A stretch of DNA of 64,000 bases from Malacoraja senta (taxonomy: Eukaryota): positions 15,130,001 through 15,194,000 of the forward strand of contig CM075990.1 in the NCBI GenBank assembly GCA_038087875.1, written 5' to 3'. Made by a program: the position numbers and the translations under genes. Each line of letters opens with the position of its first letter. The first letter of the stretch is position 1. Of this stretch, positions 11,508 to 61,914 are shown piece after piece. Under the pieces are notes generated by a model. The model was not told where the DNA came from and ran no database searches. It saw only the letters and a list, made by a program, of their open reading frames with translations.

Positions 11508-12142
11508 TTGTCCAGTTGCTCATGTCCAGTTAGTTTATTTATCTTTATATTAACAGGCAGCTGAATACACTGAACACAGCAAAGGCTGAGGGCCTTGACA
11601 TGTGGACCTACACGCTTCTCCTCCCAAAATGAATCAATTGCAGCAATCATGGCGAATTCGTCATGAGTGTTCTGTTCCCAAAACGTTGGGTAAATCTGAC
11701 CAAATCAGGAACCACCTTCTCAATTTACCCCTGAACATACAAAAATCCACCAGGGAAATCATCAAACAACACTAATTCACCTATAAATTGGTTCATTTTT
11801 GCTTAGCTTGTGTTCTCCCGGGGCCATGAACTAGAATCATCATTATAGTTTTAATCTACCATAAAGCAAATCCAATAATATGGAGGAAAATTAAGAGCAG
11901 CCACACTCAACCTTGTGAAAATGAATGCAAAGCGAAATGCTTGTCATTTGTTTGAACCCCTCATGTGGACACCCCATAAATACGTCCACTTTCCAGCCAT
12001 TTGTGAATGGTAACAATGAATTCACGTTCAAGGCTTGGTCAGGAATGGTACTGTTGTCCACGAATTCCACATTGCACAATTGGAGTCACGTCACTTCCAA
12101 TACGCTCACCTGGCACAGAACCTGGGTAAGATCTCATCTTTA

Positions 12143-12382
12143 GGTACACAAAAATGCTGGAGAAACTCAGCGGGTGCAGCAGCATCTATGGAGCGAAGGA
12201 AATAGGTAACGTTTCGGGCCGAAACCCTTCTTCAGACTGAAAAAACATCAGTCTGAAGAAGGGTTTCGGCCCGAAACGTTACCTATTTCCTTCGCTCCAT
12301 AGATGCTGCTGCACCCGCTGAGTTTCTCCAGCATTTTTGTGTACCTTCGATTTTCCAGCATCTGCAGTTCCTTCTTTAACAC
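12143..12382. mobile_element. Perfect fold-back PLE-derived hammerhead-motif element (subfamily A)
   Basis: Perfect 99 bp inverted repeat (12142-12240 / 12248-12346, 7 nt loop) plus a unique 3' tail. 15 bp TSD AAGATCTCATCTTTA (12128-12142, 12383-12397). Confidence 0.92.
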
Positions 12383-13474
12383 AAGATCTCATCTTTAACT
12401 GAGAAACGGTGGACTTATTTGCATCCCATAGTGCTAACTGAGGACTATTTGGCAGAAGAGAAAGGTCAACATGATCTTCAAAGCTGCAACATCAAAGTCC
12501 ATGGCACCAATCATTGGTTTTAAATGGACAACCATATCGTTATTGGCTATGAGGCCAAAACAAAAACTGATTGGTTTGTGACGATTTTTTCCCTCACTCC
12601 TTCAAGCCAGCCGGCCACTCTGAAACAAAAACAGAAAATGTTTAAAAAGATCACCAGGTAAGGCAGCATCTGTGCAACGAAAAAGAGTGAACATTTTGGC
12701 TCTGCACCTCTTTGTCAGGCTGTTGACTCTTTCTCTTCACACAGGTGCTGCCTGGCCTGCTGAGAATTTCCCGCATTTTCTGTTTTGGTGAAAAGTTATT
12801 GTTAAGTGGACTGTATTCACTTGTTTGGGAATTACAGCGATCGAGGGCGATGAATGATTCTTGCTGTGACCTGGCGATCCAATTCATATGGTTGTTTAGT
12901 CTGCCATATATTTTAAAGGAAATCATTCTACTTGTAACAGTTAAACTCAGTATCTAGGAGATTGCTCATATTTCATGTTTAAAATGATCTTGTGTGTGTA
13001 TGTGTAAGAGTGGTGAAAGGATTTATCAAAAAGGAGTTATATTGTCTGCACCTTTGTATGGCCATGATAAATTGGCATGATTTTCATGTTGGTATGATTG
13101 CTTCCCTAAGCCTATGTGCAAGTGAAAGTTATTCCACATTTGCCCACAACGGGACAAATAATAGAAACTGCCACCAACCCTTTTCTTGCGTGCCAATGTT
13201 TTGTCTTTCACAATTGATATTCTCAGAACAAAAAAATATCTTGGATAATGTCCAATATATTGAGGGGCGTTAAGCAGTTATGTCTCTGCTTCTTGAGCCC
13301 TCGTGATGACTGATTATGGGAAAAGTCACACAAGGAGGCAAAGGAGGTGACTCTTACAAACAAGTAGCAGTTCCAGGTGATTTAGAATAAATTGGGAAAT
13401 TAAAAAACGTACATATCCCAAACTTAATTTTCTTCCTGGTCCTATCTGCAAAATAAACAGAGCAATATTGTAAT

Positions 13475-13687
13475 GGTGCTGGAGAAATTCAGCGGGTGAG
13501 GCAGAATCTATGGAGTGAAGGAAATGGGTAACGTTTCAGGCCGAAACCCTTCTTCAGTCTGAAGAAGGGTTTCGGCCCGAAACGTTGCCTATTTCCTTCG
13601 CTCCATAGATGCTGCCTCACCCGCTGAGTTTCTCCAGCATTTTTGTCTACCTTCGATTTTCCAGCATCTGCTGTTCCTTCTTAAACA
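13475..13687. mobile_element. Fold-back PLE-derived hammerhead-motif element (subfamily A)
   Basis: Inverted arms meeting at CTTCTTCAG|TCTGAAGAAG. 12 bp TSD CAATATTGTAAT (13463-13474, 13688-13699). Confidence 0.9.
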
Positions 13688-14394
13688 CAATATTGTAATA
13701 ATGTTTTGGTATTATTTTTTGTCTTTATGTCATTTTCTAATATATATATTGGAAGCAAACATAGAACCTAGGCATAAACCAGTACAGCACAGGAACAGGC
13801 CCTTCGGCCCACAACGTCTTTGTGCTGAACTGGTCTCATCTGCCTGTACATGATTCATATCCCTCTATTTCATGCCTATCTAAAAGCCTCGAACACCACT
13901 GTTGTACATGCCGCCACCACCCCAGGCAATATGTTCCAGGCCCCCACTACACTCTTCGTTAAATAAATGCCTTGCACATCTCTATTAAACTTCCCCCTCT
14001 CACCTTTTAGCTATGCTCCCTAGTGTTGGACATTACCACTTTGGCCAAAAGGTTCTGACTATACACCCTATCAATTCGCTATCATCCCGGGATGGCGGGA
14101 CTGACATATGATGAAAGAATGGATCGACTGTGCTTGTATTCACTGGAACTTAGAAGGATGAGAGGGGATGATAGAAACATATACAATTCTTAAGGGATTG
14201 GACTAGATGCAGGAAAATTGTTCCCCGTGGTGGGGGAGTCCAGAACCAGGGGTCACAATTTAAAAATAATGGGTAGGCCATTTAGGACTGAGATGAGGAA
14301 ATACTTTTTCACCCAGAGAGTTGTGAATCTGTGGAATTCTCTGCCACAGAAGGCAGTGGAGGCCAATTCACTGGATGTATTCAAGAGAGAGTAA

Positions 14395-14917
14395 AAGGCC
14401 TGTCTCACGAGTCTGCGGTCATTGGCGGCAAAACAGGAACAATCTACCGCTCCTGGGCCGCCAGAGACCGCGGGCTCGGTCAAACGCCCGCCGCCTGGGG
14501 CCGTGCGGCGTTGTTCCCAACACCGCACGGTGCTAAAATAAAACCAACACTGTTCAAAAATATGTTCCTACCGCACAGCCGCCGCCAGTGAGGCACGGCC
14601 GCCGCCACAGCCGCCGCCACAGCCGCCGCTAGTGAGTCACGTGTGCCGCACGGCCGCCTCCACAGCCACCGCCACAGCGCCGCGATCAGCACTGCCGCCG
14701 CCACAGCCCCGCAGATCCGAAATGACGTCATCGCAGTCGGCCCGCCCTTTGTTTTTACTTACCGCAAGCTCGTGGGACCAGCCGTACTTAAATCACTCGG
14801 CCCCTGCGCAGCGCTCCCGCGGCATAGGCTCGGCCCTCTCGCCGTTGCCGTGCGGTCCCCTCTACCGGCGACGCCGCGCTTCACCGCCGATGACCGCAAC
14901 ACCGTGAGACAGAGCCT
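14395..14917. mobile_element. GC-rich PIF/Harbinger-like MITE
   Basis: Terminal inverted repeats AGGCCTGTCTCACG / CGTGAGACAG(A)GCCT flanked by TAA/TTA. Cleanly splits CR1 sequence. Internal GCCGCCACA repeats. Confidence 0.75.
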
Positions 14918-14993
14918 TTAGATATCGCTCTTTGGGGCTAACAGAATCAAGGGATATGGGGAAAAAGCAGGAACAGAGTACTGATTCTGGATG

Positions 14994-20829: not shown

Positions 20830-21462
20830 AAAGGCACAAAGAGCTGGAGCAATTCCGCAGGACAGGCAGCATCTCTGGAGAAGATAGATACAAAGTGCTG
20901 GAGTAACTCAGTGGGTCAGGCAGTGTCTCTGGGTGACATTTGGGGTCTGGACCCTTCTTCAGACTTATTGTGAGGGTGGGGTGAAGAAAGCAGGGAGAGA
21001 GATGGGGCAGGACAAAGCCCATCAGGGAATAGGTGAATGCGAGTGAGGAGAAGGGGGTGGGGGGGGAAATAGGTACGAGTCTAGTTGAGGAACAGGGGAG
21101 AAGGGGAAGGGGCGGGTGTTTGTAGTTTCCTAAAATTGGTGAATTCAATGTTCACACCTTTGCGTAAGCTACCAAAGTGGAATATGAGGTGCTGTTCTTC
21201 TGTGTCTACGTGTGGCTTCACTCTGGCAATGGAGGAGGCCCAGGACAGAAAGGTCAGTATGGGAGTGGGAAGAGGAATTAATATGGTTAACAACCAGGAG
21301 ATCCAGTGTATGTTTGGAAAATACTATTTTCCTCCACCACTCTTTCCTTTTCCCGAACCAAAACGTCACTTATCCATGTTCTCTAGAAATGCTGCCCAAC
21401 CTGCTGAGTTACTACAACACTTTGTGTCCTTTTTGTGTAAACCGGCATCTGTCATTCCTTAA
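20830..21462 (-). mobile_element. Penelope-like element 3' fragment (endonuclease C-terminus, 3' UTR, hammerhead motif) with inverted terminal copy
   Basis: Minus translation ...EEQHLIFHFGSL.KGVNIEFTNFR resembles the end of PLE GIY-YIG ORFs. Followed by a pyrimidine-rich UTR and CTGAAGAAGGGTCC.GACCC.AAA.GTCACCC. An opposite-orientation tail copy lies at about 21350-21462. Confidence 0.75.
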
Positions 21463-21653: not shown

Positions 21654-21833
21654 TGCAAGCAGCTGAATGTTAGCACTGCCTTTTGGAAATATCGGTCACT
21701 GCCTGCACCATTTAGCTCATGTTAAGCATGGGTGGGGAGAAATTCTTCTGAACGAGACAATATCATTTTACATATTGGGGCTGCTTTAATTTTTGGTCGT
21801 GTTTATTATTTGGCTGGGATGGAAGAACATTAT

Positions 21834-22086
21834 AGGGCCTGTCACACTTTCACGACCTAATTCACGGCCTTTTTTACTCGTGGACTTTTTTCATCATGCT
21901 AGAAAAAACGCCCCGACCTACTTGATGCCACTTGATGAGTACCTACGACTAGCATCACGGCCTGCTACGACCTACCTATGACCTCCTACGACCTCCTACA
22001 ATCTTGTGACGACCATGCTGCGTGTATGAGTCAAGGGCAAACTCGGCAGAGGTCGTGAATTAGGTCGTGAAAGTGGGACAGGCCCT
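21834..22086. mobile_element. PIF/Harbinger-like MITE
   Basis: About 34 bp TIR AGGGCCTGTC.CACTTTCACGACCTAATTCACG / CGTGAATTAGGTCGTGAAAGTGGGACAGGCCCT. TAA on the right flank. Internal TACGACC repeats. Confidence 0.85.
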
Positions 22087-22214
22087 TAAAGGTCTCTCCG
22101 TTGCACGCAGACCAGAAGAATCCTCTGTCCTCACCTTCAGAAATCACCTTGCACAATAGGCGCTAGAAATACTCAGCAACATTGAACTGCAAGGCTTTTC
22201 CAATATTTATATAA

Positions 22215-27350: not shown

Positions 27351-27594
27351 TGTCAATGTTTTTTTTCCATATTTTAAGGAGGCTTGACATCAAAGGTTTC
27401 TTTGCAGGTTCCATTTTGTATCTTTTGTGTCCAATTTCCTTTGTGTTTTCTGTACCATACAGTGTGGACCTGTTCTCCACTGCTTTCTTTCTAATATATT
27501 GTTTTCCTTCATCGTGTAGATCTCCCGTCGGGCCAGCTACTGGGAGAAGAACAGCGATTATTAACCAAGACCTCTCTCGTGCTTCCTTTTCCAG

Positions 27595-27718
27595 GTTCTT
27601 CATTCTTCATAAGTTGCCAAACCTGAAGTTCCTGGATGCAAGGAAGGTTACCCAAAAGGAACAAAGAGAAGCAAGCACTCGGGGCGTCTTCATGAGAGTG
27701 GTGAAACCCAAAGAATTG
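27595..27718 (+). CDS. LRMDA: LRMDA internal coding exon
   Basis: Pyrimidine tract and CAG acceptor (27592-27594). 124 nt reading (R)[41 protein letters not shown]; phase completes the AG|G Arg codon from the previous exon. Probable donor GTAAAG at 27719. Confidence 0.92.
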
Positions 27719-41292: not shown

Positions 41293-42325
41293 TGGTTTAG
41301 AGATACAGTGCGGAAACAGGGCCTTCGGCCCACCGAGACTGAACCGACCAGCGACCCCTGCACACGTACACTATCCTACACACCAGGGGCGGAAAACCCG
41401 GGGGGGGGGGGCAGAGGGGACACGTGCCCCCCATGTTTTGAGAGATGGGGACATCTCCCCCAAGTTTTTGTCACCCGGATTTTAAAATCTCCGCTTTCCG
41501 CGAGACAGTGGAGGTGGGACTGCTGATCGAGGGCGCCGATTGGACGAGAGAGACGTCGGTCAGCAGGCAATGGGGGCGGGATATGATGATTCAGCACGCT
41601 GATTGGAGGAGTGGAGGGGGGTGGGACTGAGGATAGAGTGCGGTGATTGGAGGAGGGAGACGTGGCACAGACCTGCGCCTCATCCACAGCCAGGATCGAT
41701 CCCGGCCGGGTCTCCGGCGCTGTCCCGTCCCCACCCGAGTGACCCCCCCCCCACGGGTGGCCAGAGAGGTCGGGAGTCAGACGGGAGCTGTACCCCCAGG
41801 CCCACAGCCAGCGCAGAGTAGCAGCGCTAAACCCAGCTCAACTCTGCCTGTCCCGCCAGGTTAATCTGCCTGGGCTTGCGGGAAATATGGCCAGCGCGGA
41901 GAAGCAGCGCTGGTGTCCCGTCAGTCCAGTCAGGGCTTGTAGGTGTACCCGGCGAGACAGGCAGTGTTGAGCTGCATTTAGCGCTGGATTGAGCCTCCGA
42001 AGCCTCGCGGATGTGTGTGTGAGTGTGCGCATACGCGCGCGGCCGCCAAAAAATGGTGTCCCCCCTGTCCCCCGGTCCCCTCCATATTTTGATAGCGAGT
42101 TCCGTGCTTGCTACACACCAGGGACAATCTATACTTATACCAAGCCAATTTACCTACAAACCTGTCCGTCTTTGGAGTGTGGGAGGAAACCGAAGATCTC
42201 GGAGAAAACCCACGCGGTAACGGTGATAACGCACAAACTCCGTACAGGCAGGACCCGTGGTCGGGATCAAACCCAGGTCTCTGGCGCTGTAAGGCAGCAA
42301 CTCTACCGCTGCGGCACCATGCCGC
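41293..42325 (-). mobile_element. HE1/V-SINE split by a hAT element
   Basis: SINE halves at 41293-41383 and 42111-42325. Confidence 0.85.
41384..42110. mobile_element. GC-rich non-autonomous hAT-type DNA transposon
   Basis: Perfect 8 bp TSD CTACACAC (41376-41383, 42111-42118). Imperfect TIR CAGGGGCGGAA / TTCCGTGCTTG and subterminal inverted GGGGGACA / TGTCCCCC motifs. Confidence 0.85.
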
Positions 42326-43409: not shown

Positions 43410-44033
43410 GAGAAACAATGAACTGCAGATGGTGGTTTACAAAAAGACACAAAGTGCTGGAATAACTCAGCAGGTCAGGCAGCATCTCTGGAGAACACAG
43501 CGAGGTGACTATCCCCTATTTTCTATTTCTCCATCACTGCCACCTCAGTTCTCAAGATGAGGCCTTTCTATCCAGGACATCCGAGATGTCTTCTTTCTTT
43601 AGTAAACATTGTTTTCCCCTCTTGTTGTCATGGATAAATCCCTCTCCTCTGTATCCGGTAGATCTGCTGTCGCTCCCCCTCCCCCCAGATGGAACAAGGA
43701 TAGAGTTCTCCTGGTCCTCACTTTCCCCCCTCCATCAAACTCCGTCTCCAACAATCGTTCTCTGCCATCTTCAACGTGATATCTCCTCATCCCCACCCCT
43801 TTCCACCTTCGGCTGAGACCACACCCTCCATAACTCCTTGGTTCATTGATCCATTCCCATTGAAACCACCCCCTCCTCAGGTACTTGCCCCTGCAACCGC
43901 AGGAGATCTAACACCTGTCCCTCCCTATACCTCCTCCTTCACATCCATCCAGGGACCCCAGCTATACTTACAGACGAAATAGAGGTTCACATGCACCTCC
44001 TCTAATCACATCCAGTTGTGACCCTTCTTCAGA
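43410..44033 (+). mobile_element. Penelope-like element ORF relic preceded by an inverted terminal repeat
   Basis: Frameshifted SQDEAFLSRTSEMSSFF...LVLTF...HLQRD..SSPPLSTF..DH.LHNSLVH...GTCPCNRRRSNTCP.YTSSFTSIQGP...RFTCTSSN, typical of the PLE RT-to-GIY-YIG linker. 43410-43510 is an antisense family tail. Confidence 0.75.
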
Positions 44034-49936: not shown

Positions 49937-50544
49937 TAATGCTCAAGTGTTTAGAAGTGAGTGAGCACGTTTTGTTATTCATAAATGGGACAAATTGGAA
50001 ACAATTGAGTGATTCATCATTCCCTCTGCTGATGGAACTTTTTTTTCCAAAATGTTAATTCTTTGTTCGTGTTTTGAATGTTGCCTGTTATTATGGGAAA
50101 ACATAAATGAAGCCCCAGTGATAATATCTGAAGTACCTGCAATGGAAATTACACTGACAGCTTGTACCATCTCTATCAAATTGGTTAGATTTGCAGACTG
50201 AGCAGAGAGTTGGAATTTGCAACTAACTTTAAAATAAGATTATTCATACTTAACATATGCAAATGTGGGGAAGGAGAGAAAGACAAACCATTGATTGTTC
50301 ACAGTTTGTGAATGCCCTGTTTGTACAGATGGATATTTGAGATGTTTCCAGAGAGGGAATGTACATCTTTCAATAGTAGAAAGTTTAGGCAAAACATTGA
50401 ATACTTAACACAATGCACAGCACCAGAAGATGGCCTGGGTGATTCCTGTGGCATAGGAGGGAGGGACTGGGCACACTTGCGGCAAGTACGGCAGTCCGGA
50501 GAGCACCTCACACCTCACATCTGATGACCGAGTCTTTTACTCAG

Positions 50545-50825
50545 TTGGAGAATCAAAAAGGAGGGGACATATGTCTAAGGTGAGAGGGGCAAGATTTAAC
50601 ATCTTTCTGAGGGGCAACATTTTCCACATAATGGGTGATGGATATATGGAATGAGCTGCCAGAGAAGGTAGCTGAGGCAGGTACTATAAGAGTATTTAAA
50701 AGACACGGAAAGATTTAGAGGGATATGGACCAAACGCAGGGAAAATGAGACCAACTTAGATGGTTCATCTTGGTCATGGGCGAGTTGGGCCAAAGGGCCT
50801 GTTTCCATGATGTATGACACGATGA
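50545..50825 (+). mobile_element. CR1-like 3' fragment
   Basis: Same 3' UTR type as 9265-9470, 17200-17415 and 36700-36968. Confidence 0.7.
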
Positions 50826-52053
50826 CAACATTGGCTTTTCTTTATCATTATTCTATACTTGTAAGTGTAGTAATTTTATTTTGAGCATGTTTTTGCACAG
50901 CACTTTTTGAAGGTGCATTTGTGCGAATGTATTCAAAGTGAGCAGACTTCTTCTGATACTCTTTCAATATCTTTCCCCCCCACAAAAAAAAATGTCCACC
51001 CATCTGCTCTTTGCTTGCAGTAACGGTGTTGTTTTTGTTCAGCTGCCTAGTGGGACAGTCTTAAGTTACTGCTCCTCTGAACTTTTCAACCTTCATTTTA
51101 CTAAGCTGTTAAAGTTTTGATCCTGTACTCTGTTCATGCTCCCAACAGTATTAAAATTGAGTTCTCCAACTCATCAGTTGCTCCAAAATGTGGAACCCTT
51201 TAACTCTTTTCGCTCTAATCTTGAGCCTGTTAAAAACAGTCCCAGGTTGCCTTATAACTCTTCCTCCCATTTCATTCAATGAAGCTTAACAACTTCACAC
51301 GAGCCTTGCCTTTAATCTTGCCTTTTATGAAAATAAATGTTTCATTGGCACCAATTCAGTTGTATCAATAGTGTTCAAATTATTCTCTTGTAAATGCCTT
51401 GCGAAATTGGCAGTTATTTCAAATTTCTGCAATTTTGCAACTCATATTTGCCAAAGTATCATTTCCACAATGACATTTTCTTTTTCAGTCTTATTACACA
51501 TCACATTTCTGACACGTATAAAAAACATTGAACAAATTGGCATGGTTAGGGGTAAATCATTTGACAAACCACTCTAGACAGAATCGCCAAATGGTGTAAT
51601 CATTTTACATGCTGCATAGATAGTAAATGCAAAGGAAAAAAAATGTGATTGAAGTATTTAACTAGCTTTGTGAAATACAATGATTTCAATTGTATTAATT
51701 GTTTCAGAGTGCCTTGGGCTTTCCAACAGAATAAGATGCAGACAAATGAGATATTTTGAGTCTTTTTCATTGACTTTCTGCTCATCAGGATTACAGTGAC
51801 TTGGTCTGTTTGTCGCTAAGTGATTGTTAGATTTGCTGTCATCTTTCTTAATTTACAATTCTCATTAGTTTCTGGATTTGCGTCACAGGCAATATTTTGA
51901 TAGATTGCATTTTGTGTTTTATTTTGATCTTCTAGTTGTGACTAACTACATGATCCTCTCCATCTTGCAGCCAGCCACCCACCATACTGGTACGTGTAGA
52001 TCATGAGATCAGAAGGGATAGGAGTAGTAGGCCATTCGGCCCATCAAGTCTAC

Positions 52054-52408
52054 TGGGTTGGGGACTGGACATTGTGCCTTCCCCCACAGTGGTGGTCATT
52101 GTGGGGGGATGATTTTGTGTGCTGTGCCTGTGCCTGTCAGTCCATGTACAAGATGGCGGTCGGAGGGGAGAGTGGACGCTGGCGCGAATTGGTCGCCGCT
52201 GCTCTCTCCTCAAACTTGTGTTTCTTATTTTCTTTTGGTGCTTTTGAAATTGAATTCTGTCCTTGATTTGTGTACTGTGGTGTTTTTTTATTTAATTTAT
52301 TCTGATTATGTGTTTTTTTGTTTTGTTGTGATTCTATGCATTGTAAGGTGTCCTTGGGTTTTAGAAAGGCGCCAGTAAATAAAATGATTATTATTATTAT
52401 TATTATTA
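52054..52408 (+). mobile_element. L2-tailed short retroposon nested in a minus-strand CR1 end (52010-52535)
   Basis: Tail TGTAAGGTGTCCTTG...GAAAGGCGCC..TAAATAAAATG(ATT)n; CR1 sequence is contiguous across it. Confidence 0.65.
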
Positions 52409-52904
52409 CTCCGCCATTCAATCATGGCTGATCTATCTCTCTCTCCTAACCCCATTCTCCTGCCTTTTCCCTGTAACCTCTGACAAATGTACCAATCAAA
52501 AATCTATCTACCTATGCCTTAAAAATATCCACTGAACCACTTACCATTTAGAACATAATCACATAATTCTACATCAGATAAAGTGTAAGGTAATGTAAAA
52601 TAATTTATTCTTAATGTAGTTCAAGAATCAAGTGGTTAATTGTCAAATATACCGGCAACAGAATAATGAAATTCTTACTTGCTGCAGTTTTACACGCCCA
52701 ATAACATTCATACACAAATAAATATATAATGATTGATAACACAATAAATTAATAACTGAGTAACCAGACTCTAATAGTGCAACCAAAACAAAGTCCAAAG
52801 TAGGTCAAAGTTGCTGAGGTAGGATTGCAGTTTGAGGGAATATTGATGAAAAGTGTTGTAGTCATTCTGTGGTTCAGGTGGCATCATGGAACAACATGCA
52901 CAGG

Positions 52905-53046
52905 CAACATTTCGGGTTGGGACCCTTCTTCAGAGGAGGGGTCCTGACGTGAAATGTTGCATGTCCATATTCTCCAGAGATGCTTCCTGACCTGCTCTAG
53001 CACTTTGAGTTATTTTTGTAAACCAGCATCTGCAGATCCTTGTGTC
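52905..53046. mobile_element. Short fold-back PLE-derived element
   Basis: GGCAACATTTCGGG..GACCCTTCTTCAG followed by GGGTCC.GAC..GAAATGTTGC and the family tail. Confidence 0.7.
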
Positions 53047-54024
53047 CATGGGAATATTGACATCATATTCAACTTCTGAAACAGCAGAGCATGGTGATAC
53101 AGAAGAAAGGCCCCTTGATCTTACAAAAGTCGCGCCTTGCAAAGTACGGGTGATTTTACTCGTTGCCAAATAATTGTTAGTGACCATTTCAAGTGCAAGT
53201 GAGTTTAATGTCAAGTTCAATTTTTGCACGTGGCTCAAAATAGAGACTTTTCACAGTCTATTTCATTGGCAACCAACGTGGAATATTCAACAAATTGATA
53301 TGGATGTTGTTTTTGAAGTTTAGAATGATTGACGTATTCTTCCAGCTGAATCAGCTGTAAGCAATAAAGGAATGCAAGAGAGTTGTTGAAACTGCTGTTG
53401 GCTATGTCTTGCTGTTCATTCAGAGCATGTTCTTGAGTTCATCTTGGAACTCTGGGGATTAACAGCCAGATGCTGCAGATCTAATGACCTTCATAAAATG
53501 GAGGTGGTGATTCATTGTTGCTTCCAGCAATTCATCAGAGACCTTAGCTTGTGGGCCAGCAGCTTTAGATATACAAAAGATCATCGCCTCTGACAATGTC
53601 ATCAGATGACATATTGACAAGCAGGTCATAAGCCTCGTGAGCGTGGTGCAAGTTAGGTTTGGAAATCCGAGAATCAGTAGGTTTAAGCAGAGTGACATGA
53701 ACCTGCAGAAGATTATTGAGATGTATCTAGCCACGGGGCCTATCATCTCTGCTGTAACGCTGTGAGGAGAGGAATTGCCTCTGAGCCTACATGTGTGATC
53801 AGAGAATGGTGTGTTTTCTATGGGATTGAGCACAGTGTCACGCATCAATGGATGTTACTAAAAGTTGGTCTCCATTTCCATGTGGTTTTGATCTCTCTCA
53901 TTCTCTTTCTCCACTCTCTTAACATTATCACTTTTTTTTTCTGAAAATGTATACATTTTTTCTTGCCATTGATCATCTGCAGTTGATCTGCTTGCATTCC
54001 AGCATCACATTTCTTCATGTTTAT

Positions 54025-54440
54025 AAGTCATTGGAGCAGAATTAGGCCATTGGGCCCATCAGGTATACTCAGCCATTCAATCATGGCTGATCTATCTTTC
54101 CCTCTCTTGCCTTCTCCCCATAACCCTTGACACCCGTGCTAATCAAGAATCTGTCCATCACTGCCTTAAAAAAAAACTAATGACGGCCTCCACAGCCTCT
54201 GTGAGAATGAATTCCACAGATTCATCACCCTCTGACATAACAAATTCCTCCTTATCTCCTTTTTTAAAGGTGTGTCCTTTTATTCTGAGGCTTTGCCCTC
54301 TGGTCCTAGACTTCCACTCGTGGAAACATCCTCTCCATGTCCACCCTATCCAGGCCTTTCGCGACTCAATAGGTTTCAATGAGGTCCCCCCGTTATCCTT
54401 CTAAACTCCAGCAAGTGCAGGCCCAGTGCCGTGAAATGGT
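54025..54440 (-). mobile_element. CR1-like 3' fragment
   Basis: Minus translation contains SRTRGQSLRIKGHTFK. Confidence 0.8.
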
Positions 54441-54839
54441 CACAGTTTATGATATTCCTTTAACATCAATCCTCCGTTAGTTTGCACCCACAGTAATGGG
54501 AATGCAGTGGTATCATTGTCCCATTTGGAAGATGTCCTTGCAACTTGTAACTTTATTATTTCAACCAGCTTTGTGTTTGATGGCTTATCTTCTTTTCTTA
54601 CATTGGCAGTTCTTCAGTATTGAGGAGGGCTTGCTTACATCTCAGCTCTGAAGGCTCTGAGGCAGTTGTTGAAGCCATTATGGGAACTGCAGACATGGTT
54701 AGGGGTGTTTGGGAGGTGGTACTCTCTGCCTATCATTTACAATGGGCTTTGATCACTTTTAATGCAACAACAACGATTCTCAGTGCCCTTTTTGCATGCT
54801 CTTTCTCCACCTTGGGGTTCACTGGTGGTTTTCTTAATT

Positions 54840-55590
54840 ATAATCATAATCATAATCATACTTTATTAGCCAAGTATGTTTTGCAGCATATGAGGAATTT
54901 GATTTGCCATAACAATAAAAAGAACAAGACACACAAAATACATTGGAACATAAACATCCACCACAGTGACTCCCCCACATTCCTCACTGTGATGGAAGGC
55001 CAAAAAAAAGTTCAATCTCTTCCCTTCTTTGTCCTCCCGCGGTTGGGGGGCTCAAGCCTTCCGTTGACAGGACGATCTTGGCTCCCGTAGTTGGCAGTCG
55101 GGCCCTCCGTGTCGGGGCGATCAAGCTCCCGCATGGGGGGGGATCTCAGCTCCCCGCGCCGGGCGATCGGAACCCGGGTCGGGGCTAGTTGAACGTCCTG
55201 CGACTTTGGAGCTTCCCGACATCAGTCGCTACCTGAGACTGCGAGCTCCTCGATGGTGAAATCCACAGGCTGCAGTTGGAGCGTCGATCCCAGGCAATGG
55301 TAAGTCCACGGCCCCGCGGTGCGGCTCAAAGTTAGTCTCGAGCAAGGCCGCCAGCTCCAGGATGTTGGGCTGCAGAGCGACCGGAGACACGATCTGGAAA
55401 ACAATCGCATCTCCGGCAAGGTAAGAGATTGAAAAAAAAAATTCCCCCAACCCCCTCCCCCACCCCCCACACAAAAACAAACCAGAGAACATTAACGCAA
55501 ACTTTTTAAAACACACTAAAAATAACAAAAAAGACGAAAAGACAGACAGACCGTTGGCGAGACTGCCATCGCTGATGGCGCCCCCCAGTT
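54840..55590 (-). mobile_element. Non-autonomous retroposon, longest copy in the window
   Basis: GC-rich body starting GGGGGGCGCCATCAGCGATGGC on minus; ends GGCTAATAAAGT(ATGATT)n. Second copy at 37570. Confidence 0.7.
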
Positions 55591-56679
55591 TTCCACTCCA
55601 AATAAACCTGCACACTTTAAGGGGCAACACCTACCTCTCTAACTCTGGCGTCCACTGTCCACCTACGTCCCAAATCCATACCTACCCTAGCTCTGCTGAA
55701 CCAACCTTTGCCTCTGCTCCTCCAGGGTAAAGGAGTTATTTCTCCACAACTTTCCACAGTTCTCAGTAGCCAGACCTTGCCTGACATGTCAAGCACCCCA
55801 ATCCTCTATCCAGATCTCAGGCTATTGGTCCCTATTTTGATCCGAGCTCATTCTTCCACTAAGTGATCCCTCTTCCACTTCCTGCCTAATGTTCTCTCTT
55901 CTGATTCCTTCTCAATAACAATCTCTATGAACCCTGTCTTTATCAATGCAACTCTCAGGTCTATAAATACTCCATCCCTTTGCAAATTGGCCCATTGCAC
56001 ACTCCGCAGTGGCAAAATCCATACTGGAAGACCTCTCCTTTGGTAGGAATAGGTAAGGCCTACTCACTAGTGGACAACACCTGAATTTGCCAACGGCAAT
56101 CCTCGAATCAAAATGTTCATTGACCCATCATGTGTCAACCGTGCAATATGTCCAATGAGTTGCCATTCAATACTTAGTAATGGAGGAGTGAACCAATGGA
56201 GATCTTTGCTTGTAACTGTATTGGTTTGCAATATATTACATGGTCAACTTCAACATGTTTATGATTAATTGTACCAAGAGGATTCTGGTCCTTTGGTTCC
56301 AACTTCATCAATGATGATAAAACATCAATGTCAATAGCATTGCGATATTGATTCCATCATGCCTTCAGCAAGGAGCTGTAGATACCATTAGCTTGTGAGT
56401 CAGATCATTGTAATCCTGGATCACCTTTACGTGTTGCTGGATGATCAGTCGAGGAGTGAGCAGGCACTGGAGAGGTACTGGGATAGAGGGAGCATCAAAA
56501 ATGAGTTATGAAAGGAAACTGTGGTGGTTTTGTATGAAATAAACCTAAATGTACAGGTTATCCCGCCTCCCTGTGGCCAATGCAAAGTGTTGTGTTGCTA
56601 TATCCTCTATTTCTTGTTGAGAAAAGAACAGTAAAGGGCCCACTCTGTCCAGTGTTGATTCAATGGTCAAATCCATTAT

Positions 56680-56813
56680 TTTGAAGAAGGCTCTTGACCC
56701 GAAACTTCACCCATTCCTTCTTTCCAGAGATGCTGCCTGTCCCGCTGAGTTACTCCAATGATCTTTTTGTGTCTATCTTCGGTTTATACCAGCATCTGCA
56801 GTTCCTTCCGACA
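56680..56813 (+). mobile_element. Single-arm hammerhead-motif mini-element
   Basis: 12 bp TSD CAAATCCATTAT (56668-56679, 56814-56825). Confidence 0.85.
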
Positions 56814-56867
56814 CAAATCCATTATGTCATTGGATTTACACCCACACGTCATAAAACAGGATCCTGT

Positions 56868-57016
56868 TCTCTCCATATCACCGTCTACATCTCTCGTTTC
56901 CCATTCCCCTGAATCTCAGTCTGAAGAAGAGTCTCGACCCGAAACGTCACCCATTCCTTTTCTCCAGAGATGCTGTCTGACTCGCTGTGTTATTCCAGCT
57001 TTTTGTGTCTATCTTC
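56868..57016 (+). mobile_element. PLE 3' UTR fragment with hammerhead motif (subfamily B)
   Basis: CTGAAGAAGAGTCTCGACCCGAAACGTCACC at 56921-56951. Flanked by GGATCCTGT repeats. Confidence 0.8.
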
Positions 57017-59469
57017 GGATCCTGTCACATACAGGAGATAAAATTGCAATTGGAATCATGATGAAGCAGGTAGACCTCTGCTTTGTTAGTCTTCCTGTCC
57101 ATTTTAAACACCTGCTTTCCCGTATTCCGACAGTGAGGGAGATTGAAATCAACGGCTTCAAGTGAGAAAGCGCCATATGAAACATCAAGCCTGTTTGTTT
57201 CAGAAACCTTGTAAAATCCACCGAATCCTGGTTTCAGACAATCCATTTCTTCTTGAGCTGAGATTCAAGAAAGTTTCAAGCAAAGCTGCAGAATACCTAG
57301 AATAAGACAAGAATACCTATTTTTGTTTATATCCCGCTTGATGCGTCTTTGAACACTTGTGTTCCTTGATGTGACATTTTGATGGAACCAGCACCTCAGA
57401 ATTACCATGTTCCATATAGCATGTGGTTATCTGCTAAAACATGAAAAATGAATGCTCTTCCTCTCTGGTTCAGCTGCTCACAAATGTTCATCATTCATAC
57501 AACCTGCGGCAAGAGAAATTGGGTAAAAAGCCGAGCCTAAGTGATGCTTATGTCATAAGTAATAGGAGCAGAAATAGGTCATTCGGCCCATCAGGTCTAC
57601 TCCATCATGGCCCATCAAGTCTACTCTACATGGCTGGTGTATCTCTCCCTCCTAACCCCCATTCTCCTGCCTTCTCCCCATAACCCTGCTTTATCAAATC
57701 AACATATTCAACCACTTGGCTTCCTTTGTATTATCTGTTTAATCTGCCCTGATAGATTTAATTGACGTGATCATTTGTGTCTGGAGGTCCTCTTCTTTAT
57801 ATTTGATATATTGTCGGTAATTGTCCCAGGTTAGGTTTCTGCATGATCTTGGGGTAAAGTGGGCAAATATTTCACTTTTTTTTCCCTCTACGTTCATTTA
57901 ACAAATTCAAATAATCCTTCACGACATTGACAAGTTTTGCAGAAATATGTTTTTTTTTTAAATCTGGTTGATGGGAACTATGACATGTTTCTCCAACATA
58001 AAAATGAGTTGGAAAGAGCATTCTGTGAAAATAAGTATATATCACAAATGGCAGCCCAGAACAGCACACAGTATTTCATGCTCACTGAATAGAAGCACAA
58101 GAAAAAATATTTGGTACGAAAATAGCAATTCTAGCGTAGACAAAAATGCTTAATATGTACAAAAAAAAGATGCCTGTATGGTTCGTGACAAATATTCTCA
58201 GTGCCAGAATGCACATTTTGTCTTATTCTGCCCTTTAGGTTAGTTTAATTAATACCAGTAGGCAGCATTGATTTTCATGTCTACTAGTTAGGATCTCTGG
58301 GAATCCCAAAGGTCATCTGTACACTGTGCTGTCTTTTGCCACCTTGTTGTACGGAGGACATTAGTTACATCTCCCACTGTTGCAGATGGCCTGTGAATAA
58401 AGACATCAAGTTAATAGGCAGGATGACAAGCAGCCCTGGTGTCTGCTGCTCTGCTGGTGTAAGTGGCAGGTCAGCACTGATTTCAATACATTAGAGACCC
58501 AGGATCTTCAGTTTTTGAGGTTCAGAAAGCAACACTGATGGGAATACACACAGCCGCACCAGCATACGAGTCGAATAAATGAAAGATGTATTTACAGTGC
58601 CTCTTGTTCCCATATTGTTAGTCACATCTGACTACAATGTGCATAAACAACCATGCTTAAGAGAGTTCTGTTGTTTTCCAAATTTATGCTTATTTTCAGA
58701 AAGGGATTGCTGTCACAATAAACATCAAGATTAAAATGTACTGCCGAGGTAGTATGTTTTATTACTTTCACTCATGGACCTTAATGGCTTCTCCTGGGTC
58801 TTGAGAAATTTCTTCAAGGGCTCTTGTCTTGTTTTGTTCAGAGATGTTGCTTTCTTACAAAGAATCATTCATTAGCAAAGCCTCTCAATAATCAGTGCAG
58901 TTGCCCAAGGTGACTGAACATTATCTCTGCAATCATCTGATAACGTAGTAATGTGTGTGGTAGACTGCATGGAGATAGCTATCACAAGCAAGTGTTTATG
59001 TGTTTCACTTTGCACTCTTTTCACTGCAGTTGTTGAAGATAATTTGCTCTGGATAAAAGCCTGATCTACCACCCACATGTCGCACAGCCCTCCTGACTGC
59101 CAGCTTTATTTCTGCCTTTGATCTCCTAATCTGTAATTTGTTGGATAAAGCACAAGTCTGAACTTGTTAAAAATGTGCTGGCAATTATATAATTGCACTG
59201 TGGCGATGTGGCGGGGACAAAATCAATAAACCGCTTCTCTTTCCCGTAATGGAGGAATAAAACTCATTCCCACTTTACGTCCGAGGAAGCAAGTCTTTGC
59301 TGAGATATCTATCACGTTCGTCGTAGTAAGTCTTTGCTGAGATGTCTATCGATTGCTCTCCAATGCCAACATTTTGGGGAAAGAATAAGCAGCACATTGT
59401 GAAGCCTCCGGTGTAGTAAAATATCCCAAGGTACTTCAGCAGTGTAACCAGGCCAGCCGCCCAGTTGCA

Positions 59470-59730
59470 AAGTGCTTAGGTTACTAGACTAGAAATCCAG
59501 AGGTCGAGACTAATAATGCAGGGACTTGGGTTTAAACTCCCACCAGGGTAGCTGGGGAATTTAAATTCATTTAATTAAATAACCAGGAATAACAACTCAA
59601 CCATCAATAATGAGTGGACTGTTGTAAAAATCTATTGGGCTCCCTTTTGTGAAGGGAACCTGCTGTCCTTGCGTGACTGACACGTAACTCCAGGTCCCCG
59701 ACAATACGTTTACTCCTCTGTGTGCAATTG
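59470..59730 (+). mobile_element. Old tRNA-derived SINE of a different family
   Basis: tRNA-like head (CTAGACTAG.AATCCAGAGG...GGGTTTAAACTCCCACCA) followed by GGAATTTAAATTCA and GAAGGGAACCTGC.GTCCTT motifs. Confidence 0.5.
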
Positions 59731-60145
59731 GGTAATATATACCCTCGAATAAATGAAAAATGAATGTCAAGATTTTTGCGTTTATATGTGGATGACAAAA
59801 TACAGAAGCCAATTAACCTACAAACCAACATTTATTCCCTGTTCCTTAATGTCATAGGGACATTGAGCACCTTAAAATGTTACCCACGAGGTTCTCAAAG
59901 TGTTATTAGTTAAGAGAAGTCAGGAAATCGACCACATGATAATGAAAGACCATGAAGTATTTCCAGAGTGAAAATCAAAAGTACTCAAAGGGTCGGGCAG
60001 CATCAATGGAAGGAAATGGACAGATATTTTTTGGGTCGGTACTCTGTTTCAGATTGATGGAGTTCTCTCTTCCACACTTAAGATCATGTCCTGACAGTCC
60101 CTCTTCTTAGGTCTATAGATTCAGAGGACATTTTCCTATTATAAC

Positions 60146-61121: not shown

Positions 61122-61436
61122 GGGCAGCACGGTGGCGCAGCGGTAGATTCGCTGCCTTCCAGCACCAGAGGCCCAGGTTCGATCGGGACTACAGGCGCCG
61201 TTTGTACGGAGTTTGTACATTCTCCCCATGACCTGCATAGGTTTTTTTCCGGGAAGCTCCAGTTTCTTCCCACACTCAAAAGACGTGCATGTTTGTAGGT
61301 TAATTGGCTTGGTATAAGTGTAAATCGTCCCTAGTGTGTGTGTAGGATAGTGTTAATGTGCGGGGATCGCTGGTCAGCGCGGACTCGGTGGGCCGAAGGG
61401 CCGGTTTCTGAGCTGTATCTCTAAACTAAGCTAAAC
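61122..61436 (+). mobile_element. HE1/V-SINE, full length
   Basis: A and B boxes, V-domain, tail. Confidence 0.9.
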
Positions 61437-61475
61437 AGTGCTGCCCGGTGGAATAAGTTGTCAATGGTTTCATTT

Positions 61476-61914
61476 TTTAGAGATACAGAGCTGAAAAAGG
61501 CCCACCGACTCTGCGCCGACTAGCGATCCCCATACATTAACACTGTCCTACGCACACTAGGGACAATTTACACAGACACCAAGCCAATTAACCTACATAC
61601 CTGCACGTCTTTGGAGTGTGGGAGGAAACCGGAGATCTCGGAGAAAACCCACTCGGTCACGGGGGTCTCCCTGCTCTGTGCCAAGCAGAAAGTCATCACC
61701 AAGGTATTCATCAGTCACCTTCTGCCATCGTCTGAAGAGCTCCTTCCAAAATTCCAGCATGGGGTCCATCAATCGCAGGTCACAGTGGGTGTGATCTTCA
61801 GAATGTATAAACACCGTACATACAGCAACATACAGTAGTTGGGATCGAACCCGGGTCTCCGGCGCTGCAAGCGCTGTAAGGCAGCAACTCTAATACTGCG
61901 TCACCGTGCTGCCC
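61476..61914 (-). mobile_element. HE1/V-SINE containing a 140 bp foreign insert
   Basis: SINE is contiguous if 61662-61801 is removed. Confidence 0.88.

Follow-up and report, generated by a model that had tools for sequence, protein, structure and literature searches.

The window analysed here is a 64-kb stretch of Malacoraja senta DNA, and it contains a short fold-back element framed by a target site duplication (TSD). The initial annotation had described a perfect 99-bp inverted repeat with a 7-nt loop and a 15-bp TSD, with a hammerhead ribozyme motif in each arm, and each of these features was found again (Table 1). The arms (12142-12240 and 12248-12346) are 100% complementary across 99 nt, and both carry the motif CUGAAGA-A-GGGU-UUCG-GCCC-GAAA-CG-U-U. 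The element is nevertheless asymmetric, as only the right arm continues into a 36-nt tail. Positions in the family are counted from C3 of CUGA, taken as 0, which places the predicted cleavage between +27 and +28 (12280/12281 in the right arm). On this count, the 3' end of the left arm coincides with the fixed tail boundary of the family at about +95, while its 5' end lies 5 nt upstream of the core. The palindrome at which the right arm starts overlaps both helix I and the core.

Table 1. Features of the focal fold-back element and of its main relatives in the window.
Feature	Position	Strand	Remarks
Left TSD, 15 bp	12128..12142		last A also belongs to the inverted arm
Inverted, 5'-truncated, tail-less pLTR copy	12143..12240	-	terminal repeat of a Penelope-like element (PLE)
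Hammerhead motif, minimal type I, left arm	12208..12235	-	C3 = 12235, H17 = 12208
Inter-arm junction, 7 nt	12241..12247		AAAAACA; 12241-12246 filler, 12247 family match
Direct, 5'-truncated pLTR copy	12248..12346	+	starts at the odd palindrome TCAG-T-CTGA
Hammerhead motif, minimal type I, right arm	12253..12280	+
Right-arm core	12253-12260	+
Right-arm helix II	12261-12264/12269-12272	+
Right-arm GAAA	12273-12276	+
Right-arm palindromic CG	12277-12278	+
Right-arm U16.1	12279	+
Right-arm H17	12280	+
Right-arm helix I, 2 bp	12251-12252 with 12281-12282	+
PLE tail, 36 nt	12347..12382	+	right arm only
Right TSD, 15 bp	12383..12397
Second young fold-back, sister haplotype	13477..13688		left arm shortened and lacking the tail; CAG-T-CTG with a centre of 1 nt; TSD of 13 bp, one mismatch
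Older fold-back	20880..21460		tail-less arm on the - strand runs ~290 nt upstream, into the end of the endonuclease coding sequence
Internal coding remnant, decayed, from the same PLE family	43508..44012	+	thumb to linker, several stops; tblastn E 1.7e-21

About 20 relatives had been listed in the window, and BLAST returned a match at all 20 places. With the 135-nt right arm as query there were 36 matches in total; HMM grouping likewise gave 36 arms, arranged in 25 loci, 11 of which are fold-backs. The intact motif is kept by only three of these 36 arms (12253+, 12235- and 13559+). Two of the relatives contain remnants of PLE coding sequence, at 21132-21303 and 43508-44012, so that the description of the relatives as devoid of coding sequence proved wrong for the family. 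A far older, decayed fold-back relative, with arms 75% complementary, lies at 12625-12789, 230 bp from the focal element.

Coding copies were also met elsewhere in the genome. At one locus (L033), found by a genome search for GIY-YIG domains, an endonuclease-coding stretch (32.1 bits, above the curated cut-off) ends in the focal unit and is accompanied by an inverted partial copy and a TSD. Further coding copies, belonging to older subfamilies, continue into the focal unit to or past the tail boundary in 28 of 30 cases. The focal subfamily has a C-rich 3' UTR of its own, and three loci chosen by this UTR (L179, L180 and L181) have ends identical to 12248-12382 at 135/135 positions. Compared with these loci, the junction bases 12241-12246 of the focal element are unlike the family's upstream 3' UTR, while 12247 agrees with it. 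L179 carries a 480-aa open frame with Pfam matches to RVT_1 (E 7e-5) and GIY-YIG (E 5e-4), both below the curated cut-offs; its inverted arm lacks the tail and measures 414 bp, and its TSD has 13-14 bp. L180 and L181 resemble it in terminal identity and fold-back layout. The L179 protein has 929 homologues at E<=1e-20, the closest named ones being mis-annotated or un-annotated shark and ray proteins with 58-71% identity. A C-x4-C-x2-C linker, present in the L179 frame and in the older copies, points to the Neptune clade of PLEs, a criterion taken from the accessible text of Craig et al. (2021, PMC8557442), where a linker motif is ascribed to Nematis as well.

Full-length copies of older subfamilies clarify what the unit is. 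In L175 (-138..+130) and L178 (-364..+129) it stands as a 5' pLTR directly before the element body, with the tail running straight into the body, and two other copies (L172 and L177) begin inside the tail. The unit is therefore the end of the pLTR plus the tail of an autonomous PLE, from which it follows that the focal element consists of two truncated copies of this end placed head to head. No intact full-length copy of the young, focal subfamily was present among the copies retrieved. Taken together, the copies display RT followed by C-terminal GIY-YIG, a pLTR, a tail at one end, an inverted truncated copy and a TSD, which is the canonical set for an EN+ PLE. The proposed Penelope origin and mobilisation by PLE machinery are thus upheld, as the right arm is the end of RT and GIY-YIG copies and the layout is that published for PLEs. 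We conclude with high confidence that a young protein-coding PLE inserted at 12128-12397 in minimal form, truncated at the 5' end of both arms, and that its fold-back was likely made during insertion instead of being copied from a hairpin master. A MITE or another DNA transposon was ruled out by the one-sided tail, the variable 11-16 bp TSDs and the identity to a retroelement end.

Two observations on these coding copies stand apart. At L181 (G000:C1:27508780-27510140), another young fold-back encloses a young arm that has the tail and part of the element body, and all terminal units there are 100% identical to the focal arm. In ray genomes, pieces of the protein of the focal PLE are annotated as host-gene isoforms with kinase-domain and chitinase-domain names (P0003 and P0015), which likely reflects mis-annotation or exonised copies.

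Regarding the hammerhead, both focal arms show CUGANGAH, the G10.1-C11.1 pair, helix II, GAAA, the palindromic 15.2-16.2 positions and U16.1-H17, and the assignment to the minimal type I class (min-HHR) fits the published consensus. The extra A of the focal motif also agrees with that consensus, which includes a base between positions 9 and 10.1 (Cervera and De la Pena 2014, PMC4209133, Fig. S3, in the part accessible). Helix I is shorter than the consensus 3 bp: it has 2 bp in all 19 intact motifs of a blind 600-kb sample and 3 bp in none. Since the accessible portion of the published alignment contains members with a 2-bp helix I, from D. virilis, Culex and Oikopleura (PMC4209133), the short helix weakens min-HHR membership and does not exclude it. 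Subfamilies differ at sites where change is tolerated (H17 C/U, 1.1 A/G, helix II U-A/U-G and the loop), and all of these changes are one-sided. Ten non-CpG core sites are more uniform than 58 downstream sites (0.93 vs 0.84, p = 0.0008), a comparison made on 140 of 310 rows after those not spanning -2..+85 had been dropped, which favours a good 5' match and leaves an alignment-edge bias. With this bias in mind, and with no two-sided covariation found, the uniformity of the core would fit selection acting on the parent element.

Folding gave the active helices a probability of at most 0.03 when one arm was folded by itself and of about 0 for the complete fold-back, in line with the earlier expectation that the fold-back would sequester the core. 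A hammerhead-type dimer was predicted at -8.9 kcal/mol, vs -24.6 for an alternative duplex. Published min-HHRs are described as cleaving weakly even as dimers (PMC4209133, accessible text), and one of nine Xenopus dimers is reported to have cleaved (Li, Clavereau and Pollet, bioRxiv 10.64898/2026.07.22.740005, accessible part). On these grounds, any activity of the candidate ribozyme is probably low without the help of a protein. The focal copy itself was likely dead on arrival, its hammerhead being predicted to lie inactive, locked in a duplex. A comparison with Rfam returned no hammerhead family at E<=5, only sub-threshold hairpin families that included miRNA. The literature available to us in part describes the role of PLE hammerheads as unclear. 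Independently of the core, CAGCAUC of the tail can pair with GAUGCUG at +48..+54 (window 12295-12370, +) in both of the subfamilies folded; this pairing is a candidate recognition stem for the protein of the element, and it is invariant and so offers no covariation.

The abundance claimed for the family is borne out at the level of the genome. Exact 25-nt cores number 51,960, of which 20,930 belong to the focal subfamily (0 in reversed-pattern controls), and an exact pattern for tight fold-backs found 2,199 (again 0 in the reversed-pattern control). A blind sample of 600 kb was drawn from 12 large contigs as 60 stretches of 10 kb at even spacing. It contained 274 HMM matches in 224 loci, 50 of them fold-backs, and its arm density of 3.4 +/- 0.4 per 10 kb, scaled to 1.94 Gb from large contigs only, amounts to ~6-7 x 10^5 arms. 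TSDs of at least 9 bp surround 44 of 249 loci, as opposed to 10 of 747 random intervals, by a finder that overlooked the focal TSD because of an end offset. A descriptor search found 19 intact minimal hammerheads in the blind 600 kb vs 0 in 1.8 Mb of shuffled sequence, well beyond chance, which extrapolates to ~6 x 10^4 genome-wide (Poisson range ~4-10 x 10^4). Some copies (L015-L017, L019, L022, L029 and G000:C1:3.87-4.04 Mb) have been passively amplified within larger tandem arrays with periods of ~1.36 kb and 2.4 kb, and such arrays somewhat inflate the exact copy counts.

Three RNA runs from 2026, whose organism was not shown to be M. senta, placed ~18,000 of 12.9-17.6 million reads on the repeat. 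Between 90 and 96% of these reads run on into unlike sequence, and none fell on the unique flanks beside the focal element; in these oligo-dT or single-cell libraries, no piles of read starts or ends were found on the repeat. The family is present in these transcripts (organism A) as embedded copies. In the single-cell run X21, reads over window 11900-13900 favour the strand opposite the hammerhead by ~3:1 (e.g. depth 4,243 vs 1,237 at 13575-13641), a ratio that depends on library orientation and is not readable as depletion of copies in the ribozyme sense.

The initial annotation had gone further and proposed a separate non-coding, retrozyme-like family. In that scenario, short or fold-back masters of a retrozyme- or SINE-like kind would be transcribed by themselves and moved in trans by PLE protein. 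Some observations are compatible with it: 178 of 204 sampled arms end before -50, a CAG[A/T]CTG centre recurs in 26 of 50 tight fold-backs, one haplotype of a non-blind set has six short members and no long one, and the Penelope pLTR of D. virilis has an internal promoter (PMC2377424, accessible text), so that solo units might be transcribed. Against it, the unit is identical to the end of the ORF-bearing copies L179-L181 (135/135), the fold-back layout is found whatever the length of the copy, neither centres nor arm starts are constant, and the common short haplotypes also have long members. The upstream flanks of 87 short singles are likewise unshared; the exceptions are inverted arms without a partner and a single pair that sits within one repeat. 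Moreover, at the 249 loci grouped, the units are head to head and not in tandem: the focal element and 61 fold-backs have this arrangement and the rest are single arms by grouping, although tandem derivatives may exist elsewhere in the genome. Non-LTR retrozymes, as presented in the accessible text of Cervera and De la Pena (2020, PMC7229834), share with the focal copies a non-coding, hammerhead-bearing nature and a relationship to PLE pLTRs; yet they form head-to-tail tandems with a hammerhead per unit and circular RNAs, whereas the focal copies are single or head to head. A master sequence of their own, which defines retrozymes, was not found for the short copies, as the common haplotypes are shared with long ones. 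We therefore consider a separate family very improbable and regard the short copies as remnants of the PLE. It had also been stated in advance that independent terminal truncations of an already catalogued Penelope family would count against a new family; this largely applies, the focal arm being the truncated end of ORF-bearing PLE copies.

How the fold-backs arise can be approached through their two arms. Among 61 fold-backs the tail is on one arm in 42, on both in 3 and on neither in 16, and 18 clean fold-backs of 0.2-2.1 kb have exact TSDs of 11-16 bp and a tail-less end fixed at about +95. Coding copies show the same layout of inverted tail-less copy, tailed copy and TSD at 0.6-2 kb, the fold-back layout is also seen with arms of 280-1,700 bp, and spacers and junctions differ between loci, which speaks, together with the varied centres of tight fold-backs, for independent formation. 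When arm lengths were compared in the 42 fold-backs, the arm extending further 5' was the tail-less one in 23 and the tailed one in 8, the two being equal within 6 nt in 11 (p = 0.011). Arm ends were read off local HMM alignments, with an uncertainty of several bases that is larger in old copies. Two young and clean loci agree, the tail-less arm of L180 reaching -200 vs -183 for the tailed one and that of L181 likewise being longer. In unequal fold-backs each arm holds sequence missing from the other, and hence neither is a plain copy of the other. This asymmetry (23 vs 8) favours two separately primed cDNAs over snap-back, in which a single tail-primed cDNA would fold at TCAG-N-CTGA and copy itself up to the tail boundary. 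Snap-back, which would account for fold-backs only, draws on the built-in palindrome, at which about half of the tight fold-backs are centred (by eye, CAG[A/T]CTG in 26 and other centres in 24 of the first 50 of 2,199), and on several junctions that link an end at -1..-3 to a similar site at about +40. The equal arms (11/42) and the one common centre are also what a fold-back master or snap-back would lead us to expect. Nevertheless, it is at odds with the sequence that the tail-less arm carries beyond the tailed one in 23/42 cases, L180 and L181 included; the centre base, too, occurs in both identities (in the sense of the tailed arm, A in three loci and T in seven, six of the latter being copies of one duplicated array), and no terminal hairpin was predicted for cDNA ends at -3 to -6. 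Snap-back is thus contradicted as a general mechanism and survivable only for equal-armed cases, and we judge it improbable.

The truncation of the arms raises a related question. For 204 arms, 111 of the 5' ends fall in -12..+5, 44 in -13..-49, 23 in +6..+30 and 26 beyond -50, so that loss per nucleotide is 0.050 at +6..-12, 0.02-0.03 at -12..-50 and 0.004 beyond -50; 104 high-scoring arms gave 0.041, 0.016-0.030 and 0.003 in the same three zones. Genome-wide, an exact match over the 12 bases upstream is found for only 6,946 of the 20,930 exact young cores, a count that understates long copies because exactness is required and that, with a few per cent of decay, would be nearer one half. Hammerhead cleavage was considered as the cause of the ends of short copies. 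Cleavage predicts 5' ends at +28, yet only 3 of the 274 sample matches start at +27..+29 and most copies retain the whole core, so cleavage does not set these ends. It is true that a start at +28 or further downstream is seen for the tailed arm in 8/42 fold-backs, vs 1/42 for tail-less arms, but most starts at +39..+44 fall on a microhomology site; we regard cleavage-set ends as extremely improbable. A strong stop is less remote, though still rather unlikely in our view: short arms would have run off a capped RNA 5' end at an initiator-like TCAGTC overlapping helix I, and long copies would need strand transfer. The accumulation of 111/204 ends in -12..+5 speaks for it, as does a G before AGTCTGA in five of six singles and, genome-wide, in 2,520 of 6,271 non-C cases (40% vs ~28% expected); an extra G opposite the cap is known for L1. 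However, the excess loss persists through -50 and is not confined to one base, a G at -4 also arises from fold-back junctions (TTCAG + AGTCTG) and TSD overlaps, and the position intended as a control for the cap G is confounded by a subfamily difference. Furthermore, long arms are equally frequent among tailed and tail-less ones (7/86 vs 7/98), and read starts do not pile up in the three RNA runs, which come from fragmented libraries. A splice site at CAG|UCUGA, like that of the intron end in D. virilis, was rejected because 87 short singles have no common upstream exon, although very short exons could escape. As the cause of truncation we prefer a stall on entering the C/U tract.

Reading the genomic scars, we infer the following course of priming and joining, which as a whole we hold to be slightly favoured. 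The endonuclease would make staggered nicks ~14 bp apart, and each target strand would prime RT on the element RNA, one at the tail end and the other 36 nt further in. Both cDNAs would be prone to stalling where the hammerhead domain gives way to the C/U-rich 3' UTR. Their 3' ends would then be joined by microhomology, most easily at the built-in TCAG-N-CTGA palindrome and sometimes with filler bases, as at the focal element, while the hammerhead would belong to the RNA cycle of the parent element. An inner cDNA running ahead on a single RNA would fit the bias toward a longer tail-less arm. We might tentatively speculate that both nicked strands prime at two fixed sites 36 nt apart, on one RNA or on an RNA dimer held by the hammerhead palindromes, and that the hammerhead is a stop-and-join signal, either in place of a cutting function or in addition to it.

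A parallel is offered by the twin priming of L1, which causes 5' inversions: the second target strand primes RT internally, and the inversion is joined by microhomology. In L1, however, the two segments are free of overlap and the position of second priming varies, whereas the arms of the PLE fold-backs are both copied from one terminal stretch, with a constant distance of 36 nt between the end and the second site. A further comparison is with the complex insertions of EN+ PLEs. As far as the accessible texts of Craig et al. (2021, PMC8557442), Arkhipova et al. (2013, PMC3846280) and Schostak et al. (2008, PMC2377424) go, these share with the focal family the 5' truncation, a pLTR that arises from partial tandems, a neighbouring copy in inverted orientation that is itself 5'-truncated, a short TSD, RT with C-terminal GIY-YIG, and, at one end only, a tail of 30-40 bp whose sequence is that of the body's start (a 34-bp repeat in D. 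virilis); a curation guide describes the layout as well (PMC8969392, accessible part). The focal element differs in being reduced to two terminal repeats without a body, and the family in having copies in the hundreds of thousands. In the same accessible portions, the accounts of EN+ PLEs describe no truncation hotspot at a hammerhead and no asymmetry of arm length.

The min-HHRs of metazoan PLEs, mostly dispersed singles in truncated PLEs according to the accessible text of Cervera and De la Pena (2014, PMC4209133), resemble the focal motif in fitting the consensus; pairs on opposite strands, 100-700 bp apart, are noted there in Schistosoma. Cartilaginous fish are absent from the table and alignment of that paper as far as accessible, and its counts of ~4,000 intact motifs in coelacanth and ~9,000 in Xenopus compare with ~50,000-60,000 in M. 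senta. The one genome of M. senta thus combines ~2,200 tight fold-backs, ~50,000 intact motifs and a very young subfamily. A preprint mentions retrozymes in one chondrichthyan (bioRxiv 10.64898/2026.07.22.740005, accessible part), and its supplements may list the focal family among them. We found no account of the focal family, the hotspot or the arm asymmetry in the literature on cartilaginous fish, in a search that lay outside subscription papers, Repbase Reports, Dfam and preprint supplements.

Overall, the class of the element is known and the focal copy is ordinary in kind, a PLE-derived truncated insertion; its interest lies in the junction statistics and the young subfamily. The value of the data set lies in junction statistics able to discriminate between mechanisms, PLE integration being described as still undefined in the accessible text of PMC8557442. 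If true, the stop-and-join mechanism would account at once for the tail, for the inverted pLTR and for the hotspot of truncation, and PLE integration would be recorded in scars numbering hundreds of thousands. The subfamily with 100% identical ends and a long open frame would then offer, for testing, a vertebrate PLE that was active recently. For the annotation of repeats in cartilaginous fish, short palindromes of this kind should be filed under the parent PLE and not under MITEs, SINEs or miRNA hairpins.

Finally, we would like to comment on other sequences met during the analysis. A second PLE family has intact 759-aa RT and GIY-YIG frames in tandem arrays with a spacing of ~7.5 kb (loci L037, G000:C5485, and L039, C4423; arrays at C14:18.24-18.41 Mb, C5550 and C17:5858-11621). 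It showed no match to the 135-nt unit, for which reason it was rejected as partner of the focal element, and no hammerhead core by regular expression. Its 3' end adjoins (CCCTAA)n or a telomere-like variant repeat. Such an endonuclease-bearing family at telomere-like repeats is worth attention, as telomere attachment is described, in the literature accessible in part, for endonuclease-deficient PLEs. In the window itself, inverted-repeat pairs unrelated to the PLE unit lie at 61244-61647, 21827-22093, 14392-14920 and 41822-41986 and are possibly MITEs or inverted SINE pairs. A probable exon of a leucine-rich-repeat protein is located at 27584-27718 on the + strand (Pfam LRR_9, E 2e-4; Atlas 0.92). 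We take this exon to resemble LRMDA, and the focal element may sit in an intron of the corresponding gene.
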